A stretch of DNA of 64,000 nucleotides from a virus (IMGVR_UViG_3300033074_001484:96001-160000); one strand, 5' to 3'. Counted from the first letter of the stretch, positions 560-64,000 are shown. Notes: generated from the letters alone by a model not told the origin. Numbers and translations are program-made.

Positions 560-1333
560 TCACCTTATTGTCTCATACAAAGCATTTTGCATGATCTGTC
601 TTTGCAAATTCTTAGGATGATATATGTGATAATCTTGTTGATGTTGCGGAATATGTCCAAGTTTAGCATACCCTATCAGTCGTTCATGCACCATCCCGTC
701 CCACCGTATATTAATAGAATTTGCATATAATCTAAATTGATAGTCCGGATAATTTATAATTGGCTGATAATGATGTACTACCCCATCAGTTTCAGATTGT
801 ATCATCTGAAACTCTGAAAGGAGATTATATGCTCCAACACTTAAATCTGATCTCATGGTTTTGGCCATATAATTTGGTAATTTATATACTCGCCACCCCC
901 ACTGTCGAACGTACTTCTCAGTAATACCGTCCACTGTATTCACACGAGGCACTAATATAACATCATATTGCCGGTTTAATTTTATAATATCATGTATATT
1001 TGACACTAATGCTTCAGATGGAATTTCATCTGCATCTACTTGAAATATATAATCTCCGGTAGCTACCTTGAATATTTGATTCTTAAAATCTGCAAAATTC
1101 GGAACCTGCGTGGTCGGATTCCTTAACACCCCTTCAACTACAGTTACAGGTAACGTTGATACATATTCATGGTTATGTAAATATTGTGCAACCCCCCCAT
1201 TATCCTCAACCGTGCTGTCATACAGTATAACAATTTCATCGGTATCACATGTTGAATATGTATTCAATACTTCGATGAGGCGTTTCAATTCATGAAGTTC
1301 ATTACATACAGTTATTGCATATGTCACTTTCAT
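560..1333 (-). CDS. Glycosyltransferase family 2 (GT-A)
   Basis: YAITVCNE, DEIVILYD, NFADFKN, GDYIFQVDADE (DxD) and VHE motifs. Confidence 0.88.
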   Translation of the reverse strand: MKVTYAITVCNELHELKRLIEVLNTYSTCDTDEIVILYDSTVEDNGGVAQYLHNHEYVSTLPVTVVEGVLRNPTTQVPNFADFKNQIFKVATGDYIFQVDADEIPSEALVSNIHDIIKLNRQYDVILVPRVNTVDGITEKYVRQWGWRVYKLPNYMAKTMRSDLSVGAYNLLSEFQMIQSETDGVVHHYQPIINYPDYQFRLYANSINIRWDGMVHERLIGYAKLGHIPQHQQDYHIYHPKNLQRQIMQNALYETIR

Positions 1334-31084: not shown

Positions 31085-31099
31085 TTGCTCCTTATTTCT

Positions 31100-31373: not shown

Positions 31374-31392
31374 GATAAATACCTTTTTTATG

Positions 31393-31918: not shown

Positions 31919-33742
31919 TTATTCCTGAGCGTCGAATGGGAACAATGCACCAGTAGGTAATACAATGAAGTCAACGATCAAGTATTCAACCGTTTTTGCA
32001 GGTTTCAAGAATATTGACGCCCTCATTTCATTTCGGTCAATAACATCGGGTGTATTATTTCTTTCAGAAATTTCGATTCTATAATCATACAACCCTTGTT
32101 GGTTTTTAACCCTTCGGAAATATGGCTCAACAATCTCAATGAATCTTGCACGTGTCTCCACTGTGTTGTTTTCAAACACAAGGGTTTTAGTTGCCCATGC
32201 CACAAATCGTTTTGCATCTATTAATAAACGACGAACATTAATACGGTCAAGTGCAGATGCTTTTTTCTGTAAGGTTTTTTGACCCCAAACTACCACCCCA
32301 GACCGTGGGAATGTTGCAATTGGATTGACACTACGTGTGTATAAATTATCACGATCATTTTGTGTCATCAATCGTTCTGTTTGCACTACTGTGTCGAGAA
32401 CACCACGATTCAATCCGGCAGGTGCATACCAAGGATGTGATACCCGGTCGTTGAATGAATACACTCCGGAAATCACAGAACTTGGTGGAACCCAACAGTT
32501 TCTACCCAAATCTGGATCAGGGATCATTACCCAAGGATAATACATAGCAGCATAATTTGTATTTCTGGCTTCTGCTGCTATCTGTGCCTGTCCAACTGTA
32601 GCACCTTTTAATGTAGGGTCGACAACTAAAAATATATCGCCGCGATCTTCGCACATATTAATGGCATATGAAACGATTTGCGATTGTTCGCTCGCCCCCT
32701 CAGTTATACCCGGTAAGAATAACAGATTAATATCGTATTGGTCTTTATTCGCAAGAATATCAATAGCATCTTCATACGCGGTTTTACCATACGATGCAGA
32801 TGCAACATTAAATCCTTGTGTATTGTATGCCCAAATATTTTCATACATAGCGCGAGGGTGCGTCACATTACCATCACTACCTCCAGAGAATGCACCGGAT
32901 GCTATTGCCGGTAATGAGCCGGATAACGCACCATCCCGAATTAGACCATTTGAATTCAAATAATTAAATGTAGAATTTATCCCCTCTACTCTCAAGAACC
33001 TTGATCTGTTAGGGTATGATCCAGACCGTTCAAGATATGGTTCACCACTCGAATCATAACGAAGTGTCCATGTCATATCACCAATAACCTTCGCAATATA
33101 ATTATTTGACGTTGGGTCAAGTGATAGTTGTGAATATTGTTCAATTACGATTCGACGATTACCAGTATCATCACCACGCCGGATAAGCAAATCAAACGTG
33201 CCGCGATTTGGATTAACCGCTGAAATCTCCCATCTTATGTTATGCTTCGATCCACTGACAAGTAATCCCGATGCTCCTAAATCTGATGCAACATGAGACC
33301 CCGATATAGCACCTGCAACTTGTCCCGAATTATAAACTTCACCATCGGATAATGATACTAATTTAAACGCCATATTTGCAGCAGTATATGGACCATCATC
33401 TTCCAACGATTTAGATGTTATTACATATGAGTAAGCAGGTTGGTAATTACCGGCTAACACGCGAACAACGGTCATCACTTCCCCATATCTCAAATATTCC
33501 TGAACACAATATGATGTGAGATATTTGTACTCCTGTTCATACACTCCCGACCCTGAAATGAAAACATCCCCAAACCAACGTTGATATTCGGAATATGTTG
33601 ATACCATTGTCGGTACCATTGCCGGTCCCCGTACCGTTGGTCCAATTACAGCACCACCAACTTCTGGAATTTGTAAAGGCAGGTATGACAAGTCAACTTC
33701 TCGTGTATATACACCCGGAGATACAAACGTATTCTTACCCAT
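31919..33742 (-). CDS. gp18: Tail sheath protein
   Basis: SPGVYTREVD, WYAPAGLNRG, WGQKTL, RINVRRL, FENN, P.K.VE. Confidence 0.97.
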   Translation of the reverse strand: MGKNTFVSPGVYTREVDLSYLPLQIPEVGGAVIGPTVRGPAMVPTMVSTYSEYQRWFGDVFISGSGVYEQEYKYLTSYCVQEYLRYGEVMTVVRVLAGNYQPAYSYVITSKSLEDDGPYTAANMAFKLVSLSDGEVYNSGQVAGAISGSHVASDLGASGLLVSGSKHNIRWEISAVNPNRGTFDLLIRRGDDTGNRRIVIEQYSQLSLDPTSNNYIAKVIGDMTWTLRYDSSGEPYLERSGSYPNRSRFLRVEGINSTFNYLNSNGLIRDGALSGSLPAIASGAFSGGSDGNVTHPRAMYENIWAYNTQGFNVASASYGKTAYEDAIDILANKDQYDINLLFLPGITEGASEQSQIVSYAINMCEDRGDIFLVVDPTLKGATVGQAQIAAEARNTNYAAMYYPWVMIPDPDLGRNCWVPPSSVISGVYSFNDRVSHPWYAPAGLNRGVLDTVVQTERLMTQNDRDNLYTRSVNPIATFPRSGVVVWGQKTLQKKASALDRINVRRLLIDAKRFVAWATKTLVFENNTVETRARFIEIVEPYFRRVKNQQGLYDYRIEISERNNTPDVIDRNEMRASIFLKPAKTVEYLIVDFIVLPTGALFPFDAQE

Positions 33743-33759
33743 TAATCATCCTCTTTTCA

Positions 33760-33767
33760 TATAAATA
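33760..33767 (-). promoter_or_regulatory. TATTTATW late-promoter-like motif
   Basis: About 18 nt upstream of the sheath start. Confidence 0.6.
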
Positions 33768-33793
33768 TGTAAAAAATAATTCAAAATACAAAT

Positions 33794-34669
33794 TCAATAT
33801 CTAATATTTCTTCTTAGATTTTTTCGCAATACATGTGACGGTTCCTCTGTCATATGTCGCCGATCTGATCTCATTGAAGTGTCATTAATAAAAATATCAT
33901 CTGCTTCGTTTTCACCTACAATCTTCACCGTTTTTATAGAGAACTTTTTTTGCATTGTTTGTCTACTATACTGAAACTCATCAAGTAAATAACCATCCAC
34001 TGTTATTGGTATTGTAGCCTTTACAATTCTTTGTTCGCCGGGCAAAGATGTGACTTCATCCGTCAATGACCCCATGTAAACTCTAAATTTATAGTAATCG
34101 CCCCATAAATGATTATTGACTGAAAATAGCGATTGTGCTACTATATTTAAATGTTCTACAAAGTCACACCATATAGTAATGTCGTAATCAACTTTTACAA
34201 ATCTTGGTATATTCACCAAATAATATTCATACGAATGTTTCCGCAAAATTTGACCGGTCACCCGATCATATTGCATGTTCATTGACCGGTATGGGTATAA
34301 TTTACGTGTTGGTGTATAATTATTAAGGTTTACATGCGGCAATCTATCATCATCATTAACACCCATACGCTTCAACCCAATAACAGGTGATATAACCTTA
34401 TTATTAAGGTCCCGCATAAACCCATTACGACGTATTTGATTGAATTTTTCACCATCAAGATATATTACCGGAACTTTAACCGCATGACCATCTTCAACCA
34501 CAGTAGGTTTAATTTGTGAGTTCAACCCATATAACACAGCATAATCAATATCATATAATGTGACTGCCGGAACACGTACTATATCATCGTCCCGGCGCAT
34601 TTCGTTTGCACGATTGACATCTTCAGATGTTCGCCCGGATTGGTATGGAAATATTAATGGAGCGTTCAT
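33794..34669 (-). CDS. Tail terminator / sheath stabiliser (gp15-like)
   Basis: DIDYA, VPVIY..GEK, P.I...R, P.FV.VDY.I.IW; upstream of sheath. Confidence 0.65.
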   Translation of the reverse strand: MNAPLIFPYQSGRTSEDVNRANEMRRDDDIVRVPAVTLYDIDYAVLYGLNSQIKPTVVEDGHAVKVPVIYLDGEKFNQIRRNGFMRDLNNKVISPVIGLKRMGVNDDDRLPHVNLNNYTPTRKLYPYRSMNMQYDRVTGQILRKHSYEYYLVNIPRFVKVDYDITIWCDFVEHLNIVAQSLFSVNNHLWGDYYKFRVYMGSLTDEVTSLPGEQRIVKATIPITVDGYLLDEFQYSRQTMQKKFSIKTVKIVGENEADDIFINDTSMRSDRRHMTEEPSHVLRKNLRRNIRY

Positions 34670-34672
34670 GCG

Positions 34673-35845
34673 TTACCTTACATATATTTTCAAAGGAACC
34701 CTCGACAATTTTTGTTTTAACATATCATCTTCAGCTTGCGACCTTTCCAATAATGCTTGTCTGGAATAGGTGTCTAACATCTCCTTCAATTCTGTTAACA
34801 AAGATTCTTGCTCAGATTTACCATCAGACCGTAGTGTGTCTCCATCAAGTTGGACTTCACCGTCAGGAATTGGTATAGAGTTATATTTACTACGCACATT
34901 TCCCAACATTTCTTTAACCAATGCTAATGTATATTTTCGTATCCATTGGCGGGCAACATCATTTAGCCTACTATATTTCAGGTTGTAATATGGCATATTT
35001 GCATGTCCTGTTATTTTACCCGGACCATTCTCATCTGATAATTCTGAATTTGTACCTCCCGGTAATGTATCATCATCTAATGTGTATAAAAACCATACCT
35101 TGAATTCCTTATTTGGAATCGGTAATATTCTTAAACGATTATTAGTTAATTGGAACCCATATCCAGACTTCCTAATTGTGTCGTTAAATTCAATAGCTTG
35201 TAATCGCAATGCATCCCACCACATTGGAACCATTGTAAAATTTATTGGTGGAGACATATTACCCCACCCAAACTGATCCATAAAATTGGCAGATGAAAGC
35301 CCAGTACCCATGAACGGATCATAATATTTAACAATTGATGGGGGTGTATCGTGGAAAATTCTTCTAATTGTAAATTGATTTACAGTAAAGTCACCCGCTT
35401 CAATATCAGCATTCATTAAATCATATATTTGCTGTCCGGGTTGAACGGTTATACTACCTGAATAATAAGTTAAATATCCGCCCGTACCTGCTTCTGTACC
35501 ATATTGCTTTGCCAATTTGAATACAGACCGCAGATTGGGTTGCACCACCACATCTGAATAATTAATAGAACTCGTTGGGTATCCTATTAAATGGAGTATG
35601 TTATCTCTCGCCTGATATGTATTGACTTGGTTAGCGTATTCAGTAACAGCCTCTTCAAATGCTGTAAAAAAATTAATATCCTGTAATTCTATACTGACAA
35701 TAGGGTAGCCCAATCGACGCGCACAGTATTCTGCTATCTTTTCAGCATGATCAGCAAATACAGGGTCCGAATCATAAAACCCAAATGGGGTATCACCGGG
35801 GTAGAACGATGCTGAACCGGGCCATATTGGAACGTCTGTTGCCAT
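34673..35845 (-). CDS. Neck protein (gp13-like)
   Basis: RRLGYPIVSIEL, WIRKYTLALVKEMLG.VRSKY, V.LDG. Confidence 0.85.
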   Translation of the reverse strand: MATDVPIWPGSASFYPGDTPFGFYDSDPVFADHAEKIAEYCARRLGYPIVSIELQDINFFTAFEEAVTEYANQVNTYQARDNILHLIGYPTSSINYSDVVVQPNLRSVFKLAKQYGTEAGTGGYLTYYSGSITVQPGQQIYDLMNADIEAGDFTVNQFTIRRIFHDTPPSIVKYYDPFMGTGLSSANFMDQFGWGNMSPPINFTMVPMWWDALRLQAIEFNDTIRKSGYGFQLTNNRLRILPIPNKEFKVWFLYTLDDDTLPGGTNSELSDENGPGKITGHANMPYYNLKYSRLNDVARQWIRKYTLALVKEMLGNVRSKYNSIPIPDGEVQLDGDTLRSDGKSEQESLLTELKEMLDTYSRQALLERSQAEDDMLKQKLSRVPLKIYVR

Positions 35846-35859
35846 TCATATCCTTTATC

Positions 35860-35867
35860 AATAAATA
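35860..35867 (-). promoter_or_regulatory. TATTTATW late-promoter-like motif
   Basis: About 15 nt upstream of the neck gene. Confidence 0.55.
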
Positions 35868-35875
35868 TAACCTTA

Positions 35876-36205
35876 TCACTCCAAATCAAGTATATTCTTT
35901 AAAGTGTCCAATGCTTGAGCATAAATTCCAATACCTAAATCTTCATTATATTCAAACTCCACCGGAATATAATTTAATGGGTTTGCCCGATGTTCATAGG
36001 CCAGTTTATCCGGCCAAATTGATACGACAGCGGTTGAATGCTCTCTATTTTTCCATTCCAACCTAACATCACCATTATCATCAACATTTGCTGTATTTGG
36101 GATAAATTCATAATCAACATTTGCTGTAATGATTTTTTTAATTTTAAACACAGCCTCTGGGTATTCAACATCTTCATGTACATACTTAGAAATCAATAAA
36201 TTCAT
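35876..36205 (-). CDS. Hypothetical protein, possible fibre assembly chaperone
   Basis: Small acidic ORF after the fibre-like genes. Confidence 0.55.
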   Translation of the reverse strand: MNLLISKYVHEDVEYPEAVFKIKKIITANVDYEFIPNTANVDDNGDVRLEWKNREHSTAVVSIWPDKLAYEHRANPLNYIPVEFEYNEDLGIGIYAQALDTLKNILDLE

Positions 36206-36224
36206 AACTTCCCCTTTTTTAATT

Positions 36225-38219
36225 TTATCCTATAAATGTGTATGAATGCTCACTACCGGGTGCAGAATACAGTGACACATTAAAATCTGTTGCAGCCACT
36301 CCTGTTTTTGAACGCCCCTTATATGTATTATCCTCATACACATCTACGTAATAATCATTATGATCATCATACACTGCAAATAGATATGATCCATCACCAG
36401 TTCTATATGTTTTTTGGTACAATTCACCTGTGTCGGCTCTATATAAACTTGCAGTTATCACGCCACCGTTGGAATTGGATATTGTACCGGCCAACGACGA
36501 TGTTAACGAATGATATCCAACATTCAATACCATGCCGGGTCGGGTTATTTGTTGATTGGCATAAAAGAAATAAGTTTGAGTTTCCAAATTAATTCTGGAC
36601 TCATCCAAATCACCATAATGTCTTATAATGTTCTGAGTAATATCGCCAAACAACCTATGCGTTTCATTTTCAGCATCTGTTAAAGGCGCAGAAAAAAACG
36701 ATTGTACATAGCTACCACTATAATATCCCCCTTCATATTTGACACCTATCATATATACGTTGGCTTGTGTTGAATTAAACACATACCCCTCAATACCAAC
36801 ATTGTGTATTTTATAATACGTGTTTGGGATATTTAATGACGCAGACATAAATCTGATAGTATCACCAGTAGCCCCCGATTGCTCATATAGTGGGGTTACG
36901 ACCATTCGAGATGTTAAATCAATTCCCCCAGATGGCACAGAGCTATGATATAACAAATGCATTTGACCTGTTATACCATAGAAAGGTGTACTGGTCGAAC
37001 CGTACAATGTCAATTTTATATCATTGCCACCGTGCACCAAAGATGCCTGTGATGACGTGTGTAACATGACACCCTGCCCGGCGTTAACAAAGCCGTCCAT
37101 TTGATACCAAGACCAATGATCTGAAGTTTCCTCATTGAACGATGCCGTTAATCTCGCAGATGCTAATGATGAACCATAAATCTCCGCAGCCACACATTTA
37201 GTTGTTATTGGATTAGGTTCCGGTATAGATACACGCTTAATTATAGGGAAATTTAATCCAACCGATGATAATTGCGGCATTACATCAAATGGAATTCTGA
37301 GGTTATTCAATATTTTTGTAGTTGTAGTTGGATTGTATTCATATGTCACCCACAATCGCCCGAACATTCCACGATATCTGTTTGCTTTATCCACCCATAC
37401 CTGAAATGTGTGTGCCGAATCATATGACCCGGTATACGGTATGGCATAAGTTTCCAACATATTTGTACCAAGAATTGCAACCCTTCTTGGTAGTGGTTGG
37501 ATCGTCCCCATATCAAAACTACAACTTAAAAAAATAGTTTCTGATGTGTTAATAATATTATTATTTCCAATTAATTCAATGTATGAATTTTTAATACTTA
37601 AATCTCCATATCCTTCCAACCACCCATTAGAACCGGACAATTTAGGTATATTTAACCATGTCTGTTGCGATAATGGTAATGCCGGGGACATTGATCCTGA
37701 TGACATCAATGGTATACATACTGTATTCATTCGAGTGTCCGCAGATGACGAATATTCATATGTAATGTCTACCCACGAATACACCGCCGTCACCGGTACC
37801 CCTGTTTCATTTGTACCCTGTATTTTACCAACCAACTCAAAACTTTGTGATTTTGCAGTCCCAAAACTTCCTGTGAAAATATTTACCACATTATGTGGAC
37901 CAAAAATATGTGCAAAATTTTCATTGGAAGTGTTAAACGCGGTACCCATCCTAAACACATGTTGATATGCACCCCCACCCATACTACCACTAACAAATGT
38001 TGTACCCTGTGATATTGTTAGCCCTCCGGCAACACAAGAATCTGACAATGTCCAATACACATTTGCCGATCTAAATTTTACCGGCGTTGTAGGTGAATTT
38101 TCACCTATATAAATAGACCCAGAACCAAATACCCCTAAACTACCAATATCAATTGTTGCCGGGTTTTCGCTCGGATTTAATCCATATCTAATTGTACGTA
38201 AAAATACCGTATCCGCCAT
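36225..38219 (-). CDS. Beta-rich virion surface protein
   Basis: Ser/Thr/Gly-rich with many SGS/TGS/TAS; in structural operon. Confidence 0.6.
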   Translation of the reverse strand: MADTVFLRTIRYGLNPSENPATIDIGSLGVFGSGSIYIGENSPTTPVKFRSANVYWTLSDSCVAGGLTISQGTTFVSGSMGGGAYQHVFRMGTAFNTSNENFAHIFGPHNVVNIFTGSFGTAKSQSFELVGKIQGTNETGVPVTAVYSWVDITYEYSSSADTRMNTVCIPLMSSGSMSPALPLSQQTWLNIPKLSGSNGWLEGYGDLSIKNSYIELIGNNNIINTSETIFLSCSFDMGTIQPLPRRVAILGTNMLETYAIPYTGSYDSAHTFQVWVDKANRYRGMFGRLWVTYEYNPTTTTKILNNLRIPFDVMPQLSSVGLNFPIIKRVSIPEPNPITTKCVAAEIYGSSLASARLTASFNEETSDHWSWYQMDGFVNAGQGVMLHTSSQASLVHGGNDIKLTLYGSTSTPFYGITGQMHLLYHSSVPSGGIDLTSRMVVTPLYEQSGATGDTIRFMSASLNIPNTYYKIHNVGIEGYVFNSTQANVYMIGVKYEGGYYSGSYVQSFFSAPLTDAENETHRLFGDITQNIIRHYGDLDESRINLETQTYFFYANQQITRPGMVLNVGYHSLTSSLAGTISNSNGGVITASLYRADTGELYQKTYRTGDGSYLFAVYDDHNDYYVDVYEDNTYKGRSKTGVAATDFNVSLYSAPGSEHSYTFIG

Positions 38220-38839
38220 TAAGATGTTATTTTTATGACTAACGTTGCGCGTGTTATCGTTGACACAGAATCAACTCTAAACCTAAAAACATCCTCCGCA
38301 TTTACACTTGTAGTCCATGATGTTAGTGTAGTATCATAATTAATCCTTGCATTTGACAATGTGGGTTTTTCGGTACCTGTTATAGTATCTGCTACGGTGG
38401 GTGGATGATTAGCAATTGTATCTTTCCACACATCAATGACAATAGACCCTGATTGATCTGCTGTCAAATACCATCCATTAATTGTACCTGAAAAAGGCAC
38501 TATAATTTCACCCTTGATCCCTGTTGTAATTTCAGAACCGCCACCATCCACAGTTATACCAATTGATCGTATGGCGGATGCAACCACCCCAGATAAACCG
38601 CTACCATCTCCAATAAATGATCCCGAAAATGATCCTGTTAATTCTGCACCAGACCCAATATGGCCGGGTCCGACAAACGTACTACCAAATCCCAATCCTT
38701 GAAATGAATGCGCTTGTATTGATCCCGGCAAATCTACTACTATACTGCCGCCTTCAAGTGTTATACTACCAGAATTAACCGTTAAACTGTTAAGTGCGGC
38801 GTTGGACCCTGATAGTATTAATTTTTTCCACTTCGACAT
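38219..38839 (-). CDS. Fibre/decoration protein
   Basis: Shares WKK.I.SGS and GSF.GDGSGL modules with 39251..40537. Confidence 0.6.
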   Translation of the reverse strand: MSKWKKLILSGSNAALNSLTVNSGSITLEGGSIVVDLPGSIQAHSFQGLGFGSTFVGPGHIGSGAELTGSFSGSFIGDGSGLSGVVASAIRSIGITVDGGGSEITTGIKGEIIVPFSGTINGWYLTADQSGSIVIDVWKDTIANHPPTVADTITGTEKPTLSNARINYDTTLTSWTTSVNAEDVFRFRVDSVSTITRATLVIKITS

Positions 38840-38863
38840 ATATCAATTTTCTAACAAAAAATA

Positions 38864-39040
38864 TCAAGATTCAGTAGAAATCTTTTTATCAAAGTTTGTC
38901 TTTGCCGCGTACAACTTTGTTAAAATACCGGTAATAAATGGAGCATCAATTCCATGTATTTGTATTCGATGTATGGCATCTGTCAAAAGTTGAAGCTCCT
39001 TTTCATTTAATGAAACCCTCACAGTACTATCAGTTGTCAT
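38864..39040 (-). CDS. 58-aa hypothetical protein (below ORF-track cut-off)
   Basis: Manual translation MTTDSTVRVSLNEKELQLLTDAIHRIQIHGIDAPFITGILTKLYAAKTNFDKKISTES; resembles the adjacent ORF. Confidence 0.7.
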   Translation of the reverse strand: MTTDSTVRVSLNEKELQLLTDAIHRIQIHGIDAPFITGILTKLYAAKTNFDKKISTES

Positions 39041-39043
39041 ATG

Positions 39044-39235
39044 TTATTTTTTATAAAAATTTCGCATTGTTTCCAATTTATTAAATATATCATATACCAA
39101 TTGCACATCTTTACCTTTGAACGCAGTCTCGCTCAATATTGCAATGATTAAGTCACACTCATCCTCAGTAAGTGGTGGTGGATATGATGATTTCAACGAT
39201 TCAGTATTTGATGGTTTTGTAGTTAATAAGCCCAT
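39044..39235 (-). CDS. Small hypothetical protein
   Basis: LTEDECDLIIAILSETAFKGKDVQLVYDIFNKL. Confidence 0.7.
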   Translation of the reverse strand: MGLLTTKPSNTESLKSSYPPPLTEDECDLIIAILSETAFKGKDVQLVYDIFNKLETMRNFYKK

Positions 39236-39250
39236 TATATATAGTTTGAA

Positions 39251-40537
39251 TTATGCATAAATATAAACATCCCCATTCTCAATACGAATATTACCATTTT
39301 TTTGATAAATAGCATTGTCGGCTTGGCCCCCGTCTACATCAACAACCGCTGCCAAATATGCGTCCGGGGCAATCGCAGTTGCTTCGCCACTTAATTTTGT
39401 AATGGTTTGTAATCCAAATCGTTCTGCTGAATCGTCCCACCCAAATCCAACACCTGTAAAATCCGACTCTGTTTGAATTACAAAACCACCATCGCCAGAT
39501 GCCGATCCTGAATTAAGTAATATGAATCTATCCTCAACCGCTATATTTGTAACATTTTGATTAATGACTGTACCCAACACAGTCAAGTTACCCCCAATAA
39601 TAACATCATGGCCGAATTGAGAACCTGAAATTGTAAGCATATTAGTCGATGAATTATATGTAAAATCTGCATCTGACGTTACAGTATCCCCATCGCTCCA
39701 AAATGTTACCCGTGTAGACGCCCCAGAACCATCTACTAATGAAGACCCCCACACTCTCGAATCAATAGTACGTGTTCCCAAATCTCCCGCAGCAGACCAT
39801 ATCGCTACCGTATCCGTGGTTAGTGCCGGGGCTGCTGTTAAATTCAATCCAGAGCCTGTTATATGGCTTGTAGCGGTAAAATTACCTGTAAGTGAGAGCG
39901 TACTACCATCAAATGTTAAATTTGCTTCCCCATTTACACTTGTGGAATCAACGGATGTTATAAGTCTATTGTTGGCTGCATTTGTATAGGATGTTATCGC
40001 ACCCGTGGGCAATCCTGTCAAACCGCTCCCGTCACCTGTAAATGATCCTGTAAATGATCCTGTTAATCGGGTAGCAGCGACTGTACTACTGTTTACAATA
40101 GTACCTGTAAGTGTTAAATTTGTAAACTGTGGGCTATCACCAGTTCCAAGCCCCAATGATGTACGTGCTGTTGCTCCAGACTCAGCAACCCATGTTGTAT
40201 TGTTACCAACAATTATATTACCATCTGTAGGAGTTAATAAACTAATATCATTAAGACGAGACCCTGATGATATATTACCACCAATGTTAAGCGTAACACC
40301 AGTTCCAAGAATAGCACTTGTTCCACCAGCAACAATCACCTTCCCATCACCCGAATCAGCTATATTACCACGTGCAACTGATGTTATAGCTGATGTACCA
40401 GCACCTAATAAAACCTGTCCAGATGATAAAGTAGCTACGCCGGTACCACCACTACCAACCGGTAATGCAGTGTCTAACGATAACGATGATAGTTCCGCTG
40501 CTGATCCGGACATTATCACTTTTTTCCATTGTGGCAT
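39251..40537 (-). CDS. Fibre-like virion protein
   Basis: LPVGSGGTG, GLGTGDSPQF, GEANLTFDG, GNLTVLGT..VEDRFILLN fibre motifs. Confidence 0.75.
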   Translation of the reverse strand: MPQWKKVIMSGSAAELSSLSLDTALPVGSGGTGVATLSSGQVLLGAGTSAITSVARGNIADSGDGKVIVAGGTSAILGTGVTLNIGGNISSGSRLNDISLLTPTDGNIIVGNNTTWVAESGATARTSLGLGTGDSPQFTNLTLTGTIVNSSTVAATRLTGSFTGSFTGDGSGLTGLPTGAITSYTNAANNRLITSVDSTSVNGEANLTFDGSTLSLTGNFTATSHITGSGLNLTAAPALTTDTVAIWSAAGDLGTRTIDSRVWGSSLVDGSGASTRVTFWSDGDTVTSDADFTYNSSTNMLTISGSQFGHDVIIGGNLTVLGTVINQNVTNIAVEDRFILLNSGSASGDGGFVIQTESDFTGVGFGWDDSAERFGLQTITKLSGEATAIAPDAYLAAVVDVDGGQADNAIYQKNGNIRIENGDVYIYA

Positions 40538-40556
40538 AAAAACTCCTATTATTTAC

Positions 40557-40564
40557 AATAAATA
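40557..40564 (-). promoter_or_regulatory. TATTTATW late-promoter-like motif
   Basis: Sense CTATTTATT followed by AGGAG. Confidence 0.55.
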
Positions 40565-40577
40565 GTTTATTAAGTAA

Positions 40578-41195
40578 CTAAACAGCCCCTATATATAAAT
40601 TACTTCCACTATATACAAATGCCCCAAGTTCTACCGTTGGCAAGGTATCAAAACTATGTAACACAAGCAACCCTTCACCATTTATCTTGGCAATTAAAGT
40701 TGAACCACTATAAACTTCCAACGAATTAGTAAGAGGATCGTCATGGGTAATAATTAAACTACCTGAAACCTGTACCCCTCCATTAACACCATATATGGTA
40801 GATAATATTGATCCGGTTGGAGATATAAATGAAACACCATCAACCCCAACATTTAATTTTTTCCAAGGTAAATTCGTTGTACCTAATGAAAACACGCTGG
40901 AACTGTACGGGGTTAGTGAGCTTGATATAGTATTAGTAAATGCAATTGAATGTGAAGTTTCCCACACTAAAGATGATACTTGATAAAATGGTGTTAATAA
41001 TTGACCCGTTATATCCCCAATAGGTCCCCTTATCCCCTGTATACCTCTTTCAATTACAGTAACAATTCTGTTAGGAGCTTCGATATATTGGGTATCACTT
41101 TGCTCATTTTGATATACGGTGACCTTACGTATCTCTGACGTTGTAGGCACCACCGTTGATGGGGCTGAATATTCTGTAACAATGGTTGTACTCAC
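40578..41195 (-). CDS. Virion fibre/whisker-like protein
   Basis: Short collagen-like GIQGIRGPIG, SLGT...W, several SGS. Confidence 0.6.
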   Translation of the reverse strand: MSTTIVTEYSAPSTVVPTTSEIRKVTVYQNEQSDTQYIEAPNRIVTVIERGIQGIRGPIGDITGQLLTPFYQVSSLVWETSHSIAFTNTISSSLTPYSSSVFSLGTTNLPWKKLNVGVDGVSFISPTGSILSTIYGVNGGVQVSGSLIITHDDPLTNSLEVYSGSTLIAKINGEGLLVLHSFDTLPTVELGAFVYSGSNLYIGAV

Positions 41196-41590
41196 CGAGT
41201 GACATTCCTACTAATTTTAACCTTACCTTCAAGAACACGTACTACATATTCAGATACACCTGACCCACTATATAATTCAATATCATAATAACCGTCTTGG
41301 AACGTAAACAGGCTACTACTGTATGCACTTATTTGGATTGAAAACGACCCAGATGAGCGTGGTAATGTTACCGATTCACTTACAGGCGTCATATTGATTC
41401 CCGTACCATCTTCCGTAATAGTTGTTGTTAATCTGGCATATACTGTAGATGACTCGATTTGCGGTCGAATATGCATACGCGCCTCATAACCTGTCAAATT
41501 TATAGGTGTACCATCCGCATTGGTATACAATATGCGGGTATTAAAGGTACTACCTTGCTCAATTATAAATGTATGTCTACCTGCTGCCAT
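41192..41590 (-). CDS. Virion structural protein (BppU-N/Ig-like adaptor)
   Basis: IEQGSTF, PINLTGY.ARM.IR, YYDIEL, RVLEG.V. Confidence 0.6.
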   Translation of the reverse strand: MAAGRHTFIIEQGSTFNTRILYTNADGTPINLTGYEARMHIRPQIESSTVYARLTTTITEDGTGINMTPVSESVTLPRSSGSFSIQISAYSSSLFTFQDGYYDIELYSGSGVSEYVVRVLEGKVKISRNVTR

Positions 41591-41601
41591 ATTATATCCT
41601 A

Positions 41602-42267
41602 CTAACTATTATACAACAACCTCAATATTTCATCAATTGCCTCGTGTCTATAATTTTGAGTTAATGTTGCAATATAAACATATGCAGAGTCTCTTAATTT
41701 GGGAATGTCATGTATAGCAGACGTATCTGTATATTTCAAATCTATTTGTCGATTATCACCACATAATATCATTAAACTATTTTTACCCAAACGACCCAAT
41801 ACCATTGTCAATTGCTGCTTAGTTAAATTTTGAACTTCGTCAATAATACACACACTATTAGTGAATGTTCGGCCACGGAAATGACTCAATGACACCAATT
41901 CAATTAAACCTTTATCCTCACACTTCTTTAAGTATTCCGGATGATTGTATACCTGACGCATGTTATCTCTGATAGGTACTAACCAAGGCTCCATTTTTTC
42001 TTCCAATGAACCGGGCAAAAACCCATTATCCTCGGTACCCACAGTTGGTCTGGTTATTACAATCTTTTCAACCTCTCTTTTAAACAATTTATCCAATGCT
42101 ATTTGAACTGCGAGCAGGGTTTTACCTGACCCTGCTTGTCCTAATATAAATGATACAGGATGATTTAATATATGTCCCTTTGCAATTTTTTGTTCATCTG
42201 ATAATTGGATATTATATGTTAATTCAGTTTTAGGTTTTCTCTTGTTTAAATTACTTTCCATCTCCAT
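41602..42267 (-). CDS. phoH: PhoH family ATPase
   Basis: GQAGSGKT, ITRP, GFLPG, FRGRTF, IIDEVQN, RLG, GD..QID. Confidence 0.95.
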   Translation of the reverse strand: MEMESNLNKRKPKTELTYNIQLSDEQKIAKGHILNHPVSFILGQAGSGKTLLAVQIALDKLFKREVEKIVITRPTVGTEDNGFLPGSLEEKMEPWLVPIRDNMRQVYNHPEYLKKCEDKGLIELVSLSHFRGRTFTNSVCIIDEVQNLTKQQLTMVLGRLGKNSLMILCGDNRQIDLKYTDTSAIHDIPKLRDSAYVYIATLTQNYRHEAIDEILRLLYNS

Positions 42268-42279
42268 ACAAACTTTTTA

Positions 42280-42287
42280 TATAAATA
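42280..42287 (-). promoter_or_regulatory. TATTTATW late-promoter-like motif
   Basis: Between the capsid terminator and phoH. Confidence 0.6.
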
Positions 42288-42296
42288 GTATTATAT

Positions 42297-42327
42297 AACA
42301 CAAAGGCCACCCAAAATTTGGGCGGCC
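42297..42327 (-). terminator. Intrinsic terminator after the major capsid gene
   Basis: Sense GGCCGCCCA-AAUUU-UGGGUGGCC-UUUGUGUU. Confidence 0.75.
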
Positions 42328-42352
42328 CTCATGTAATTTACCATTAGTAGAT

Positions 42353-44014
42353 TTAGATTAAGTGCAATCCTTCTACATATAGTTTTGCGTAGAATTCCGG
42401 ACGTGTTACTTTCTTTCCGTAACGTGTCATCACGCCCTTCCTTGGTGTGAAGTTATCCGGATCATACAGTAATGGTGTCATCATAAGCGGAATATATGGT
42501 GAATACACCGCACCTGTTTCAAGGTAATTACTTCCCCGGAATCCGACAAGGATCAGATTTTCGAGCATGTACGGGTTTTTATAAACATCCCATTGATTTT
42601 TGATACCACCAATCTTTTGTACTCCCATTGCAAATTTTGCCTGAGTCCCATCCGTATCAGCAGCAAATCCCGGTATAGATTCCAAAATAGTTGCAATTGT
42701 CGGTGAAGTGACTATAAAGTTTGCACCGCCCCGAAGGGTTAATTGGTGAATTTTATTAGACAACTTCTGCAATTTAGTACCAATTGTCTGGAACCATGTA
42801 CCTTGATTATACGCTGTCACGTTTGCAGCAGATAATTCAAATGCAGACCCATTGTGCTGATATCCAATGCGAGTTGACCAGTAGTCAACTGTCGGTGCTT
42901 CGGATATAATCATATCAAGAATTTCAAGATCAATTTCCATAGAAATGTACTCACTTAAAATTCCAGTCAATTCCGCCTCGGCATCGATGTTCTGATACGC
43001 ATTGATATCTTGTGCAAATTCTGGTGTCCATACAGCTTTCAACTTACGAGTTTTAGCCACAATAGGCTCACTACGCATTTGAAGATCGATTTCTGGAATA
43101 TCAAGCTGTTCACGTGCGCTACCTGCTTGTGTTTTTCCTTCTTCAAAATCACCCCGCGTTACGTCTGTCGGCTGCTTATGGTAATTAACAGTAATCGTCT
43201 GTGATCCAGTAGCAGCGGCAGAACCAGAAACTACAAAGGAAATCAGACCGGTTGTTGAATTATACTTAGTGAATGCCTGATACACATCGTGTACAAGTGT
43301 TCCACTCGCATTTGACAGTGTAAACGCACGAACACCATGTGGATCAAATCCAGAAATGGCATCCTTGTGAATTATCACTTTATGAATTCGTGATCCACCA
43401 ACCAATAATGATTGCGAGAACGCGCTATCGTGGTTATAATCCGCACTCGCTAATGAACCAGTTGTCCATGTAGTTGAATTTGCAGACGATCCACCAACCA
43501 ATGCTGATGACGAATAATCATTTATCGTGTATCCAAATCGACCTGCCCCATACAGACCTTCGGTTGGAGTAGCATCCCCATATGATGCAGCAGTTCCCCG
43601 ATTTGCATCGGTCACACCCATCAACGAATCGTTCTGTGAATCTTTACCAGCACCAGTGTTAAATCCGGGCTGCCCAGTAGAATACTTAAACTCAAGCCAA
43701 AACACAAGACCGGATGGTAAATTCATTGGCTGTACACTTACGAATTCTTTAGCTGAAATCTCGGCAAAAATTCTACGCACAAGCGGCAATGCTATACCAG
43801 ACCACTCTTCACTATTTGCAGACGTACCAGTGCTATTCGCTTCTGTTACCAACTGCTTTGCTTGGTTTTCGAGCATGACGGCCATCATCATCTTGTCCCG
43901 AACCTTTAAATCTTCAAGAAGGCCAGTTTTTTCCCACTTTTTTGCAAGTGCAACGGCTCTGGCCCTTTGATTCGCATGATCGCCTTGCGGCAGTAAGCTA
44001 TTTACATTAGACAT
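42353..44014 (-). CDS. gp23: Major capsid protein (T4 gp23 family)
   Basis: KW..TGLLE, LENQ, PLVRR, VQPM..PSGL.F, RKLKA.W..E.AQD, Y.PY.PL, TRYG. Confidence 0.97.
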   Translation of the reverse strand: MSNVNSLLPQGDHANQRARAVALAKKWEKTGLLEDLKVRDKMMMAVMLENQAKQLVTEANSTGTSANSEEWSGIALPLVRRIFAEISAKEFVSVQPMNLPSGLVFWLEFKYSTGQPGFNTGAGKDSQNDSLMGVTDANRGTAASYGDATPTEGLYGAGRFGYTINDYSSSALVGGSSANSTTWTTGSLASADYNHDSAFSQSLLVGGSRIHKVIIHKDAISGFDPHGVRAFTLSNASGTLVHDVYQAFTKYNSTTGLISFVVSGSAAATGSQTITVNYHKQPTDVTRGDFEEGKTQAGSAREQLDIPEIDLQMRSEPIVAKTRKLKAVWTPEFAQDINAYQNIDAEAELTGILSEYISMEIDLEILDMIISEAPTVDYWSTRIGYQHNGSAFELSAANVTAYNQGTWFQTIGTKLQKLSNKIHQLTLRGGANFIVTSPTIATILESIPGFAADTDGTQAKFAMGVQKIGGIKNQWDVYKNPYMLENLILVGFRGSNYLETGAVYSPYIPLMMTPLLYDPDNFTPRKGVMTRYGKKVTRPEFYAKLYVEGLHLI

Positions 44015-55491: not shown

Positions 55492-56079
55492 TTACCAATC
55501 CCATGTTAATAAACAATTTACGTTAAATGTAGTCCCATAATACTCATAAAACACTTGTGTATTTACGTGTCTACACACCCATTTATAATCAACAGTACCA
55601 ATGGTGGTACTAAGTGCAATCACCAATTCTAACTTAAATGTTGTTGCCGCCGATGAATACAAATCAAGAATTGCAATCGGTGATGCCGCTGTTAATTCTT
55701 GCCAATCGCTATCCGGTGTAGTACTTAGGGTTTGTGCCAGTAAATTTGTCGTTGAAATCAATGCCCCCGAATCCTTCACTAATCGAACTAAAACTGAATG
55801 TGAGGTCACGTTTGTCGTGTTAACTGTCCAATATGATATACCTACCCTTATTTGTGTTATCGCATCCGCATCCGGTGGGACTCCAAGACTGATCCAACTT
55901 AAATTTTCATCAGCGCGACGGCCACGTTCAAACACATTTGAAAGTGCTTGGGCCGTAGATGTAAATTGAAATACAGGTATAGTATTATATGACGATTCAG
56001 CAAATGTGATATCTGGGGTTGACCCTACATCAACCATACTCTGTGGAGCTTCAATTTGTCCGCTTACATCATAACTCAT
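55492..56079 (-). CDS. Beta-rich putative virion protein
   Basis: Ser/Thr-rich; coupled to the upstream structural gene. Confidence 0.5.
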   Translation of the reverse strand: MSYDVSGQIEAPQSMVDVGSTPDITFAESSYNTIPVFQFTSTAQALSNVFERGRRADENLSWISLGVPPDADAITQIRVGISYWTVNTTNVTSHSVLVRLVKDSGALISTTNLLAQTLSTTPDSDWQELTAASPIAILDLYSSAATTFKLELVIALSTTIGTVDYKWVCRHVNTQVFYEYYGTTFNVNCLLTWDW

Positions 56080-63247: not shown

Positions 63248-63819
63248 TTCACATCTTTACGTTGTATAAATAAATATGAATTACCATTATCAAACATATC
63301 CCATATTACTGTGAACAATTTTGAATATATATTTTTATGTTCATCGTGTGATTGAAAGACACAATAATGCGGTTTATGTGTCGCGTCATGCTCAATTGGC
63401 ACGGTAGACCAAACTATCCCACCATTATTCAAATGTGTGTACATATTTTTAATCACCAATTCAGGATCATAACAATGCTCCAACGTATGGCTAATAGACA
63501 TAAGATCAAATTTAAATTCATATGGGAATGGTTCGTGGGCATCGTGTACCATAAGATTATTATTAAATGCCACCAATGTTTCCCATTTTACACTCGCCCG
63601 TTCTCCTATATCAAATCCATAACTATGTTTGGTATAACCCAACATATATTCAACAGTCTTGGCAATACCCCGGCACCCTATATCTAAAAAATAAAAACTG
63701 GACGGTAATTGAGGAAACACAATATTCAAATATTGTGGCAATTTATTACTATTGATAATTAAACCACTACGTTTATTCTGTTCATCATAATATTCACTAT
63801 CGTATTGCTTTCGTATCAT
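63244..63819 (-). CDS. Class I SAM-dependent methyltransferase
   Basis: FLDIGC, GFDI, FDL.SISHTLEH..DP, L..GG; start at TAATG overlap. Confidence 0.85.
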   Translation of the reverse strand: MIRKQYDSEYYDEQNKRSGLIINSNKLPQYLNIVFPQLPSSFYFLDIGCRGIAKTVEYMLGYTKHSYGFDIGERASVKWETLVAFNNNLMVHDAHEPFPYEFKFDLMSISHTLEHCYDPELVIKNMYTHLNNGGIVWSTVPIEHDATHKPHYCVFQSHDEHKNIYSKLFTVIWDMFDNGNSYLFIQRKDVK

Positions 63820-64000
63820 TACGTATCCCATCGTATCAAAATGTTCATATCAACGTCGTCACGCATTTGTAGTGGCTGACCCATTTTACCAACAGCAACC
63901 AAATCCCCCTGTGAATTGTATAATCCAACAGCGGTTACGTATGGTAGCAGTAAGGAACCGGTCATATCAGATATTAACAAATCCGACGTATGATGTATTC
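63819..64000 (-). CDS. C-terminal fragment of a baseplate/tail-collar-like virion protein
   Basis: Manual translation ...MTGSLLLPYVTAVGLYNSQGDLVAVGKMGQPLQMRDDVDMNILIRWDT*. Confidence 0.65.
   Translation of the reverse strand, partial: IHHTSDLLISDMTGSLLLPYVTAVGLYNSQGDLVAVGKMGQPLQMRDDVDMNILIRWDT

Follow-up and report, generated by a model that had tools for sequence, protein, structure and literature searches.

The stretch of DNA analysed here (64,000 nucleotides, referred to below as the window) comes from an aquatic T4-like ("Far-T4") phage, and ten virion ORFs on its minus strand carry the tripeptide [S/T]-G-S. The tail sheath protein (607 aa; 31919..33742; Pfam Phage_sheath_1/1C, phrog_23) contains five SGS sites, all within its N-terminal half (residues 63, 147, 163, 240, and 274), the neck or head-tail adaptor protein (390 aa; 34673..35845; phrog_211) contains one, and the gp23-like major capsid protein (553 aa; 42353..44014), recognised by tblastn and 52-54% identical in that search to the capsids of Flavobacterium phage immuto and of Mel-JY01, contains three, at residues 185, 263, and 269 of its variable central region. 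Five sites are present in a 206-aa virion structural protein (38219..38839; phrog_10330, tblastn match to a cyanophage 'virion structural protein'), which joins an N-terminal fibre-type module (KKLILSGS..., LTGSFSGSFIGDGSGL) to a C-terminal domain common to cyanophage virion proteins. A small structural-module protein of 132 aa (41192..41590; phrog_1084) carries two sites at hairpin turns, S79-S80-G81-S82 being invariant in six orthologues. The fibre-like protein (428 aa; 39251..40537), which has modules in common with the immuto tail spike and structural proteins, contains seven sites, and a 205-aa ORF (40578..41195) contains four, with strand-like sequence on either side (e.g. FVYSGSNLYIG). 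Two ORFs have no family match: one of 664 aa (36225..38219), assigned to the virion by gene position alone, with seven sites, and one of 787 aa (56079..58442), with five [ST]GS and 15 [ST][GAS]S compared to 3.4 expected for the latter. The last carrier is a 53-aa C-terminal fragment (63819..63980; one site), whose upstream part lies beyond the high-coordinate end of the window and which shares homology with the C-terminal end of ORF 92327-93400, part of the immuto baseplate/fibre block.

Approximately 27 kb from the motif-bearing genes, and adjoining replication genes, three glycosyltransferase (GT) genes are encoded on the same strand. The first product is a 502-aa GT4-type protein with a GT-B fold (3082..4590; Pfam PF00534, 26.0 bits against a cut-off of 26.4) and an invariant E-x7-E motif (E334, E342); the best Foldseek match of its structure model (pLDDT 91) is chlorovirus B736L (3oy2, E 1e-17), with 16% identity over the generic GT-B fold. 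The second, a divergent GT4-like protein of 422 aa (1811..3079; weak PF00534 match), has a conserved GEGxGRPxxE (E-x7-E) and is 44% identical to the immuto 'glycosyltransferase RfaG', and the third, a 257-aa GT2 (560..1333; PF00535, 27.9 bits, above the cut-off), has a conserved DADE (DxD) and homologues in immuto and Rhodothermus phage RM378. Both GT4-type genes were present in 14 of 14 long relative loci and the GT2 gene in 13, and, among 50,697 phage records, only seven contained homologues of the 502-aa protein, these also being the records with the best capsid relatives. No TM-like segment was found in any of the three, the 502-aa protein included, and, judged from their sequences, the enzymes are apparently catalytically intact and soluble.

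A 147-aa ORF of the same cluster and strand (42..485), without a family match, recurs in only one of the 14 long loci (three of 43 overall). Beyond the window, the cluster continues with an NDP-sugar epimerase, two Methyltransf_24 genes, a DUF2334 gene, and unknowns. The sugar-tailoring genes downstream of the trio vary by lineage, the immuto cluster carrying aminotransferase, acetyltransferase-like, and epimerase genes. The sequence-only reading had credited the window with two GT4 enzymes, a GT2, another GT-B enzyme, a sugar epimerase, and a methyltransferase; the two GT4-type proteins and the GT2 stand, nearly all of the epimerase falls beyond the window, and the further GT-B enzyme corresponds at best to a sub-threshold match in ORF 6574-7626. 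The folds are generic (retaining GT4) and bear no mark of a protein acceptor, the nearest solved relatives of the GT4 fold acting mostly on small molecules, lipids, or glycans. DNA is an unlikely target of the orthologous cluster, since LC-UV-MS/MS of immuto DNA detected canonical dA, dC, and dT, with fdPreQ1 in place of dG, and no glycosylated base (PMC10516641).

Enrichment of the tripeptide in the window

The ten virion ORFs together contain 40 [S/T]-G-S sites, compared to approximately 7.6 expected from 500 whole-protein shuffles of each ORF, which reproduces exactly the per-ORF counts first made by eye. Among all 8000 tripeptides, SGS ranks first in the carriers (29 compared to 3.9 expected, or 5.0 when residues were shuffled locally within 10-residue blocks); over the window as a whole, it ranks second (30 compared to 8.9). 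The excess of SGS in the carriers is about 6-fold after both whole-protein shuffles and local shuffles in 10- or 20-residue blocks, and the tripeptide signal therefore withstands the control for Ser/Gly/Thr content that the initial proposal had called for. Related tripeptides in the carriers are distributed unevenly (SGS 29, TGS 10, SGT 2, TGT 3, AGS 1, NGS 2, DGS 5, GGS 5), and the enrichment of [ST][GAS]S variants, which had also been proposed, is clear in some carriers only. Serine codons at the sites are a mixture of TCN and AGY, which places the signal at the protein level rather than in a DNA repeat.

The share of [ST]GS among x-G-x tripeptides reaches 10.9% in the carriers and 0.3% in the other ORFs. 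No [ST]GS was found in the three tail tubes, tape measure, hub, portal, protease, or terminase of the window, nor in PolB, NrdJ, SbcC/Rad50, or the 5'-3' exonuclease; the two copies found outside the carriers, in agreement with the earlier estimate, belong to a 65-aa ORF at 6132 and to RecA. The claimed division between outside and inside, with the sheath marked and the tube unmarked, is true for proteins that can be placed; for the carriers 36225, 39251, 40578, and 56079, a surface position is assigned from gene position or short immuto fibre/spike modules only. The [ST]GS ratio in non-virion proteins (0.46-0.71) is similar to that in T4 (0.70), and since depletion does not exceed the T4 level, active avoidance is not supported. 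Cytoplasmic and internal proteins thus show no excess avoidance, although this might be expected of a promiscuous cytoplasmic modifier.

Conservation and turnover in the Far-T4 clade

The pattern is clade-wide, extending to 80 metagenomic relatives, immuto, and RM378; the relatives are sheath-anchored, with GT presence confirmed in just two of these contigs. In outward-facing virion proteins of the window phage and its relatives, [S/T]-G-S is approximately five times more frequent than chance. Among the relatives, sheath orthologues contain 348 sites (40.5 expected), 41 neck orthologues 99 (13.8 expected), and single representatives of 116 unrelated ORF families 102 (34.1 expected, P = 5e-21). 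SGS heads the tripeptide ranking of the whole immuto genome (65 compared to 24.5), whose outer virion block contains 100 sites compared to 27.5; RM378 shows excess SGS (29 compared to 11.3) and TGS (24 compared to 8.6), with SGT and TGT flat. The internal virion proteins of relatives lack the motif almost completely (tubes 0 compared to 7.7, hub 1 compared to 7.2, 33794 orthologue 0 compared to 5.7).

Individual sheath sites are retained although overall identity is just 51-73%: the site at residue 63-64 is SGS in 74 of 74 orthologues, that at 240-241 is [ST]GS in 71, and that at 274-275 is [ST][GAS]S in 72, the third Ser being almost invariant. The site at residue 163-164 is replaced by NGT or DGT in 14 of the 74 relatives. 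Lineage-specific insertions in sheath orthologues contain new SGS copies, and the immuto sheath has lost one site and gained five within its own insertion. Judged from these alignments, the motif, with Gly replaced by Ala or Ser at some sites, appears to be maintained by selection in the Far-T4 clade.

Outside the clade, in phages that lack a homologue of the 502-aa GT, no excess was found in T4 (16 compared to 21.2 expected), in the Vibrio myovirus VS2 (11 compared to 10.9), or in cyanophage S-SSM7 (26 compared to 23.5), although the fibres of the latter are equally S/G/T-rich; SGS enrichment is therefore not a general property of myovirus virions or of S/G/T-rich fibres. The nearest relative without the GTs, LR756511, likewise showed no excess (4 compared to 5.0) in the head region, which alone was sampled. 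The motif is enriched in every phage that encodes a homologue of the 502-aa GT and whose tail module was sampled (the window phage, immuto, and RM378), and no SGS-rich relative without the GTs was found among the sampled phages. LR756508 has the GT and no SGS excess in its sampled head region, which is weak counter-evidence because its genome may be recoded. The proposed co-occurrence of motif and GTs is borne out in this sampling, but amounts to effectively a single phylogenetic contrast because one co-inheriting clade is compared with outgroups.

Explanations of the motif

In the sheath model (pLDDT 80; approximately 430 residues alignable to the T4 gp18 and KP1 sheaths), the sites fall within the part bearing extra T4-type domains. 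In both sheath and capsid, they are predicted at strand or helix ends leading into loops of the variable parts. The flanks of 401 non-redundant sites (I/V at -1, F/L at +1, alternating polar and hydrophobic residues) describe a strand-turn-strand element. In phages without the GTs, the homologous Gly turns read TGE, VGE, NGQ, DPNG, SPNA, EGN, or TGD, and the capsid hairpin reads EAGAL, TGE, or SGG, as opposed to SGS or TGS in Far-T4 phages; within the Far-T4 group, AGT occupies the turn in two homologues of the 38219 domain. The positions are therefore genuine structural turns, and since phages outside the clade retain the turn Gly and not the serines, SGS is not needed by the fold.

The main rival of a glycosylation sequon is a turn preference of the clade without any modification, in which SGS is simply the settled sequence of exposed tight turns and hairpin tips in the beta-rich surface domains (for instance for solubility, flexibility, or lack of charge) and the GT cluster is unrelated, for example remodelling host envelope glycans or lipid-linked intermediates. 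We regard this as a serious possibility, only slightly less probable than the glycosylation reading. The flanks and modelled positions look like a plain beta-hairpin tip, Gly is kept at homologous turns, NGT and DGT, which are ordinary turn sequences, substitute at one sheath site, and part of the signal resides in short periodic fibre modules such as LTGSFxGSFxGDGS; moreover, lipids or glycans are the most frequent acceptors of GT4 and GT2 enzymes, and the non-virion proteins avoid the motif no more than those of T4 do. However, a turn preference does not explain why Ser stands on both sides of Gly while SGT, NGS, AGS, and DGS are rare, nor why the third Ser is nearly invariant; beta-rich tubes, hub, and the 33794 orthologue lack the motif, homologous domains elsewhere fold with quite different turn residues, equally S/G/T-rich cyanophage fibres are unbiased, and new copies have arisen repeatedly in lineage-specific insertions.

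These signs of selection would serve equally for a functional motif with another chemistry or role, such as phosphorylation or acylation of Ser, catalysed by the phage or the host, or repeated weak binding to a host-surface polysaccharide or assembly factor. The GTs are tied to the motif by shared ancestry only, and a third position that favours Ser over Thr fits many Ser-directed enzymes; however, neither the window nor the extended cluster yielded a recognisable kinase, acyltransferase, or other enzyme that modifies proteins, the GT trio is the only large clade-conserved transferase set, and binding gives no reason for strict identity of three residues, which makes such a role improbable. 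That the signal reflects S/G/T-rich composition, low complexity, or duplicated modules counted repeatedly seems very improbable. Carriers are indeed richer in S, G, and T than the other ORFs, 16 of 115 neighbouring-site spacings equal 4 or 6 residues, and the carriers, presented earlier as having unrelated folds, include one pair (38219 and 39251) with two short N-terminal modules in common, which supply about four of the 40 sites. Nevertheless, BLAST revealed no paralogy among the carriers otherwise, the excess remains after global and local shuffling and in the 116 single-representative families, the same residues in other orders are not enriched, and compositionally similar cyanophage proteins show no excess.

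The clade-wide excess together with three conserved soluble sugar transferases makes [S/T]-G-S a credible candidate attachment site for a phage-made sugar coat. That the motif carries any modification, that a glycan is what it carries, and that the trio is the source are all inferences; as a whole, the view that the motif is a glycosylation acceptor in outward-facing virion proteins, supplied with sugars by the conserved trio, is held tentatively, at somewhat less than an even chance. The O-glycosylation sequon first proposed is thus partly supported, by enrichment, specificity, and the GT trio, its link to the GTs being that single contrast. The Gly would derive from a pre-existing tight turn directly after a beta-strand, before which the clade may have placed Ser/Thr and after which Ser, creating the acceptor site. 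One of the three soluble GTs would add a sugar to a motif Ser while the protein is in the cytoplasm, either ahead of assembly or in the course of it, the almost invariant third-position Ser being the likelier acceptor, and the remaining GTs would lengthen the glycan. The lineage-variable epimerase/dehydratase, methyltransferases, aminotransferase, and acetyltransferase may set the choice of sugar. The outcome would be a glycan-coated particle, decorated on the outer domains of the sheath, the variable region of the capsid, the neck, and the fibre/spike-like proteins.

Comparison with known glycosylation systems

No published description of the motif was found in the literature. Among bacterial systems, BAHT-family heptosyltransferases (Aah/AIDA-I, TibC/TibA) are soluble transferases that O-glycosylate beta-helix autotransporters in the cytoplasm, on Ser in short inter-strand loops, by recognising a strand-loop-strand element. 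This recognition matches the flanks of the motif described here; however, no BAHT-like enzyme was identified among the GT4 and GT2 types present, and the acceptors have varied folds rather than one repetitive beta-helix. The GtfA/GtfB pair, which O-GlcNAcylates serine-rich-repeat adhesins (S-x-S repeats) in Gram-positive bacteria, similarly combines a cytoplasmic GT4 with an adjoining GT-B-like gene, and its Ser-small-Ser acceptors resemble [ST]-[GAS]-S. The 422-aa protein retains E-x7-E, unlike GtfB, which is a partner without catalytic activity; the best fold matches of the 502-aa GT do not include GtfA, and the adhesin acceptors are long low-complexity repeats rather than isolated turns. 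The general O-glycosylation system of Bacteroidota, the phylum to which the hosts of some clade members probably belong (Flavobacterium in the case of immuto), uses a periplasmic, lipid-linked glycan and the sequon D-[S/T]-[A/I/L/V/M/T]. Both motifs are three-residue O-glycosylation sequons, known or proposed, followed by a hydrophobic residue, but virion proteins are cytoplasmic, the residue preceding the motif is hydrophobic (I/V) here instead of Asp, and Gly occupies its centre (Ala or Ser at some sites).

Among viruses, chloroviruses glycosylate their capsids with their own enzymes, and the chlorovirus (PBCV-1 type) and mimivirus systems, acting on capsid or fibril, likewise combine virus-encoded, host-independent glycosylation with their own nucleotide-sugar tailoring genes (PMC9614988, PMC5408694). 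Chlorovirus B736L is the best solved relative of the 502-aa GT; chloroviruses and mimivirus are, unlike the window phage, eukaryotic giant viruses. In chloroviruses, the glycans are attached by N-linkage at atypical positions, and we know of no established acceptor of B736L. The closest phage parallel is found in mycobacteriophages, whose capsid and tail-tube subunits receive glycans from phage GTs (Freeman et al. 2023, Cell Host Microbe, as relayed in PMC12619734 and PMC10877033). As in the proposal made here, phage GTs decorate the phage's own structural proteins in the cytoplasm to give a glycan-coated particle. In those accounts, however, the glycans are at subunit C-termini and the chemistry is proven, whereas the candidate sites of the Far-T4 phage are internal loop tripeptides known from sequence, with none in the tail tubes. 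A further difference is the distance of about 27 kb that separates the Far-T4 GT genes, near the replication genes, from the genes bearing the motif. If the reading is true, a short defined sequon would be new.

Enrichment of [S/T]-G-S in virion proteins of the window and its clade

The tripeptide [S/T]-G-S occurs 40 times in ten virion or candidate virion open reading frames (ORFs) of the window, compared with about 7.6 occurrences expected from composition-preserving shuffles, and twice in all remaining ORFs of the window. These ten ORFs (hereafter carriers) are named by their start positions and include the sheath (31919), neck (34673) and capsid (42353). A script reproduced exactly the hand counts of the sequence-only reading, which had proposed the motif as an O-glycosylation sequon, and the excess persisted against composition-matched shuffles, a check suggested there, whether these ran over whole proteins or locally. 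To avoid bias toward the proposed motif, all tripeptides were ranked. SGS was first in the carriers (29 vs 3.9 expected), also when shuffling was confined to blocks of 20 (29 vs 4.6) or 10 residues (29 vs 5.0), and second in the whole window (30 vs 8.9). Carrier counts were 29 for SGS and 10 for TGS, as against 2 for SGT, 3 for TGT, 1 for AGS and 2 for NGS, and [ST]GS made up 10.9% of x-G-x tripeptides in carriers and 0.3% elsewhere. The carriers are mutually unrelated by BLAST, save for two short modules common to 38219 and 39251. Because motif codons are a mixture of TCN and AGY, the signal resides in the protein and not in the DNA, and a DNA-level repeat was ruled out as its cause. No published account of a Ser-Gly-Ser motif in structural proteins of phages came up in a literature search.

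The tail tubes of the window contain no motif sites; the three paralogues (30096-30587, 30599-31084 and 31393-31872), arranged in tandem and assigned to phrog_4542, are 23-28% identical to immuto ORF 149157-149645 ('tail completion protein'), their sole match in that Flavobacterium phage. Active avoidance of the motif in non-virion proteins is not supported, the ratios (0.46-0.71) being no lower than that of T4 (0.70). HGI, DDI and DAI, prominent in the non-virion set, were single copies spread over many proteins and were attributed to multiple-testing noise.

All long ORFs of the window lie on the minus strand. Family searches, on which the gene map was built, placed a glycosyltransferase (GT) cluster at 560-4590 (a GT2, a 422-aa GT-B-like and a 502-aa GT4-like protein), replication genes at 5-19 kb (PD-(D/E)XK nuclease, PolB, Mre11-like phosphoesterase, NrdJ, DnaB, 5'-3' exonuclease, RecA/UvsX and gp32), a tape measure (24356), the baseplate hub (29007), the tail tubes (30096-31872), the sheath (31919), the neck adaptor (34673), a block of ORFs with few or no family matches (36225-41590), PhoH (41602-42267), the major capsid protein (42353), prohead protease (46749), portal (49795), large terminase (51619), a 787-aa unknown ORF (56079), SbcC/Rad50 (58455), primase (61550) and a SAM methyltransferase (63244). 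ORF 19574-20821 (415 aa, no Pfam match) shares 30% identity with the C-terminal portion of immuto gene 1 ('DNA polymerase family A') and stands beside a complete PolB at 8532-11081. The gp23-type window capsid is 54% identical to that of Microcystis phage Mel-JY01, 52% to immuto, 51% to the uncultured phage LR756508 and 35% to Rhodothermus phage RM378; T4-type capsids reach about 29%, over partial length only. Gene organisation is modular as in T4, with phoH between the capsid gene and fibre-like ORFs; the location of phoH beside structural genes is a described Far-T4 feature (PMC4360716). Judged from this gene order and from the capsid identities to immuto, Mel-JY01 and RM378, the window phage belongs to the Far-T4 clade. 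No close DNA relatives were found among cultured phages, and the window's own GT was found on contigs of up to 180 kb.

Motif enrichment is a property of this clade and not of the window genome alone. Among 80 viral contigs with sheaths 51-73% identical to the window sheath, sheath orthologues contained 348 sites vs 40.5 expected and neck orthologues 99 vs 13.8, and orthologues of internal proteins were essentially motif-free (tail tubes 0 vs 7.7, the 33794 orthologue 0 vs 5.7, hub 1 vs 7.2 expected). ORFs from the same contigs that fell into 116 families without similarity to window proteins, each represented by one member, held 102 sites vs 34.1 expected. SGS is the most enriched tripeptide of the complete immuto genome (65 vs 24.5) and TGS ranks fourth; the outer virion block of this phage has 100 vs 27.5, the sites being concentrated in spike/fibre proteins, the sheath and small structural proteins. 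For RM378, the deepest cultured member, SGS (29 vs 11.3) and TGS (24 vs 8.6) are both among the top twelve tripeptides, with SGT and TGT at expectation. Genome-wide, RM378 also has TLS, TVS and TFS (Thr-hydrophobic-Ser) each about 2.5-fold over expectation, a broader T-x-S bias not seen in the window.

Outgroup phages served as controls and were not enriched. Over 99 kb of T4, covering most structural genes and all fibres, [ST]GS occurred 16 times vs 21.2 expected, SGS ranked 1701, and the sheath, capsid, gp12 and fibritin contained no [ST]GS. Counts were 26 vs 23.5 expected for the equally Ser/Gly/Thr-rich baseplate and fibre region of cyanophage S-SSM7, 11 vs 10.9 for the Vibrio schizo-T4 phage VS2, and 4 vs 5.0 for the head region of LR756511, the nearest GT-lacking relative, a count too low to be informative. 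The S-SSM7 region, not enriched overall, includes one ORF (88177-92835, 1552 aa) with 11 [ST]GS vs 3.1 expected, and SGT is over-represented there instead (28 vs 12.8). The head-module sample of LR756508, which has the GT, held too few sites to inform, and its genome may be recoded. The tail module of LR756511 was not found by protein search or with the Pfam sheath profile, and a tblastn search of GT-lacking phages for the SGS-bearing N-terminal fibre module matched the C-terminal domain only.

Conservation and structural setting of the sites

Comparison of 74 aligned sheaths indicates that selection acts on the motif itself. Residue 64 reads SGS in 74 of 74 and residue 241 [ST]GS in 71; at residue 275, 72 sheaths carry SGS, SAS, TGS, TAS or SSS, exactly the variant set that the sequence-only reading had written as [S/T]-[G/A/S]-S. 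The third Ser of the motif is almost invariant, and extra SGS copies occur inside lineage-specific insertions. In the immuto sheath two sites are retained, one is lost and one is present as the SAS variant, and five new sites lie in an insertion of its own. At residue 164, N-G-T replaces SGS in 12 of the 74; this is formally N-x-T and probably an ordinary turn sequence.

In a logo of 401 non-redundant sites, I/V directly precedes the motif and F/L directly follows it, after which polar and hydrophobic residues alternate; the context is thus strand-turn-strand. G-S tends to recur six residues away, which places a minority of sites in short periodic fibre modules. In the sheath model (pLDDT 80), each of the five sites stands where a strand or helix gives way to a loop; two follow helices, so that not every site is a hairpin. 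Some 430 residues of the model can be aligned with T4 gp18 and the KP1 sheath but only about 320 with minimal sheaths, which indicates that the N-terminal half, where the sites lie, holds the extra T4-type domains; in gp18 these domains face outward. Capsid sites are internal (residues 185-269 of 553), in the central region, where the protein is least conserved.

Out-of-clade phages carry homologues of three carrier families, namely 41192, the C-terminal domain of 38219 and the capsid, and their turns were compared. At the first turn of the 41192 family, Far-T4 phages carry S-G-S or T-G-S and cyanophages T-G-E, V-G-E or N-G-Q; at the second, Y-S-G-S-G-V corresponds to T-D-P-N-G or E-S-P-N-A. 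The S-G-S of the 38219 domain in the window is E-G-N or T-G-D in cyanophages. The capsid hairpin F-V-V-S-G-S, which in Far-T4 phages has S-G-S or T-G-S, reads E-A-G-A-L in T4, T-G-E in LR756511 and S-G-G in the Vibrio phage. Since out-of-clade homologues carry other residues at the same turns, turn and serines can be separated: the Gly turn is structural and predates the clade, and the flanking serines are a clade-specific addition. The substitution is not universal: in the 38219 domain, A-G-T stands at the turn in two Far-T4 homologues.

The glycosyltransferase cluster and its candidate targets

The GT trio comprises a 502-aa GT4-type protein (3082-4590), a 422-aa GT4-like protein (1811-3079) and a 257-aa GT2 (560-1333). 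On its own contig the cluster runs from the PD-(D/E)XK nuclease through a 179-aa ORF, the 502-aa GT, the 422-aa GT, a 159-aa ORF, the GT2 and a 147-aa ORF to an NDP-sugar epimerase/dehydratase, two Methyltransf_24 genes, a DUF2334 gene and several unknowns, extending beyond the window. Among 43 related loci, 14 of them long, the nuclease and both larger GTs were present in all 14 long loci, the GT2 in 13, the epimerase in six and the remaining cluster genes in 0-3. The core recurs in immuto, where another and larger array of sugar-tailoring genes follows it (two WecE-type aminotransferases, a methyltransferase, a mannosyltransferase, a PglD-like gene, an epimerase and another GT). Such a conserved transferase core with a variable sugar-supply periphery would be expected of a surface glycan under diversifying selection. 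The 179-aa ORF (4587-5126), between the nuclease and the first GT, matches only the Macro domain, below threshold (E 0.033), and none of the 43 loci has a homologue of it, so that it resembles an insertion specific to this lineage at the start of the cluster. Outside the main cluster, ORF 6574-7626 (350 aa) has a sub-threshold match to the C-terminal domain of RXYLT1, a ribitol xylosyltransferase (E 0.0011, 18.9 bits vs 27), and may be a fourth, divergent glycosyltransferase.

The catalytic signatures are intact in all three GTs: E-x7-E in the C-terminal domain of the 502-aa protein (E334/E342, invariant in 57 sequences), GEGxGRPxxE in the 422-aa protein (conserved in 39) and DADE in the GT2. 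None of the three has a TM-like segment. The 502-aa GT was modelled (pLDDT 91) as a GT-B two-Rossmann fold matching many GT4 structures (Foldseek E 1e-17 to 1e-12); it scored 26.0 bits against Pfam Glycos_transf_1 (cut-off 26.4), and many homologues carry precomputed PF00534 annotations. Its best solved relative by both sequence and fold is the chlorovirus glycosyltransferase B736L. The predicted fold is that of a generic retaining GT4 and is uninformative on the acceptor. A predicted complex with the 132-aa SGS-bearing protein scored 0.01, a value that bears on the question in neither direction. Of 50,697 phage records, 7 contained a homologue of the 502-aa GT, and these are precisely the seven closest relatives by capsid; metagenomes contain thousands of homologues, and LR756511 lacked one by profile search. 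The homologue in the 484-kb phage LR756508 (LR756508.1, 305411-306748) is broken by two in-frame TGA within a 636-aa open frame, which suggests that this phage reads TGA as a sense codon; if so, table-11 ORF calls on the record are unreliable.

DNA is a frequent target of phage GTs (10.1101/2023.12.21.572611, PMC13326640). LC-UV-MS/MS of digested immuto virion DNA identified canonical dA, dC and dT and, in place of all dG, 7-(formylamino)methyl-7-deazaguanine; a glycosylated nucleoside was not reported (PMC10516641). It is therefore unlikely that the orthologous GT cluster glycosylates DNA in bulk, and virion proteins and host envelope glycans are left as candidate targets.

Competing readings and known glycosylation systems

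We tentatively put forward [S/T]-G-S as a candidate glycosylation sequon modified by the GT trio, at a confidence somewhat short of even. The soluble phage enzymes would attach a glycan to Ser of the motif, the acceptor sequons would lie at exposed turns of the sheath, the capsid, the neck and fibre proteins, and the resulting particle coat would be a self-made, lineage-variable glycan across the abundant, aquatic Far-T4 phages. Such a sequon would explain why the residues are so strictly specified, why the motif is confined to outward-facing proteins and to the clade, why conservation is combined with turnover, and why a conserved soluble GT trio without an evident DNA role is present. Against it, the association with the GTs amounts to a single contrast at clade level, in which ancestry is a confounder; the flanks resemble those of ordinary hairpin tips, ordinary turn sequences appear to alternate with SGS at one sheath site, and avoidance of the motif in non-virion proteins does not exceed that in T4. 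A purely structural, clade-specific turn preference is only slightly less likely than the sequon; another modification or a binding role seems improbable, and an artefact is scarcely credible.

To our knowledge, virion glycosylation has been chemically shown only for a few phages, the mycobacteriophages, and we know of no acceptor sequon. Mycobacteriophage virion glycosylation alters antibody recognition. If true, the proposal would give the first protein-glycosylation sequon to be defined in a bacteriophage, as well as the first case outside actinobacteriophages. Most particles of this clade, which is widespread in both lakes and oceans, would then be expected to wear a glycan coat, which would bear on adsorption, on how particles stick and aggregate, on protection from proteases or grazers, and on phage-host recognition; sites of glycosylation would be predictable from sequence alone, and glyco-engineering would gain a compact pair of tag and transferase. 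Cultured members (immuto, RM378 and Mel-JY01) make the hypothesis directly testable. Even without modification, a three-residue signature so strictly conserved on exposed turns, and specific to one clade, would still call for an explanation.

Mycobacteriophage virion glycosylation resembles the proposed system in its phage-encoded GTs; three GTs with intact motifs are present here. It differs in that its glycans, proven on virion proteins, lie at the C-termini of capsid and tail-tube subunits (PMC12619734, PMC10877033), whereas here the tubes are motif-free and the candidate capsid sites internal. Giant viruses offer a second precedent for virion glycosylation. An analogy with GtfA/GtfB was rejected, since the 422-aa partner keeps its catalytic motif, unlike the inactive second GT-B protein of that pair; GtfA, a GT4 with an extra beta-domain, was not among the best Foldseek matches listed for the 502-aa GT. 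The strand-loop-strand of BAHT-type acceptors fits the logo and the 41192 and 38219 hairpins, but two of the five modelled sheath sites follow helices, and the BAHT heptosyltransferase family was not among the general Pfam or fold matches listed. The Bacteroidota sequon D-[ST]-[AILVMT] requires Asp before the acceptor, whereas here Gly always precedes the third Ser, as the motif itself dictates, and the position before the motif is hydrophobic in 54% of sites, with I/V most enriched.
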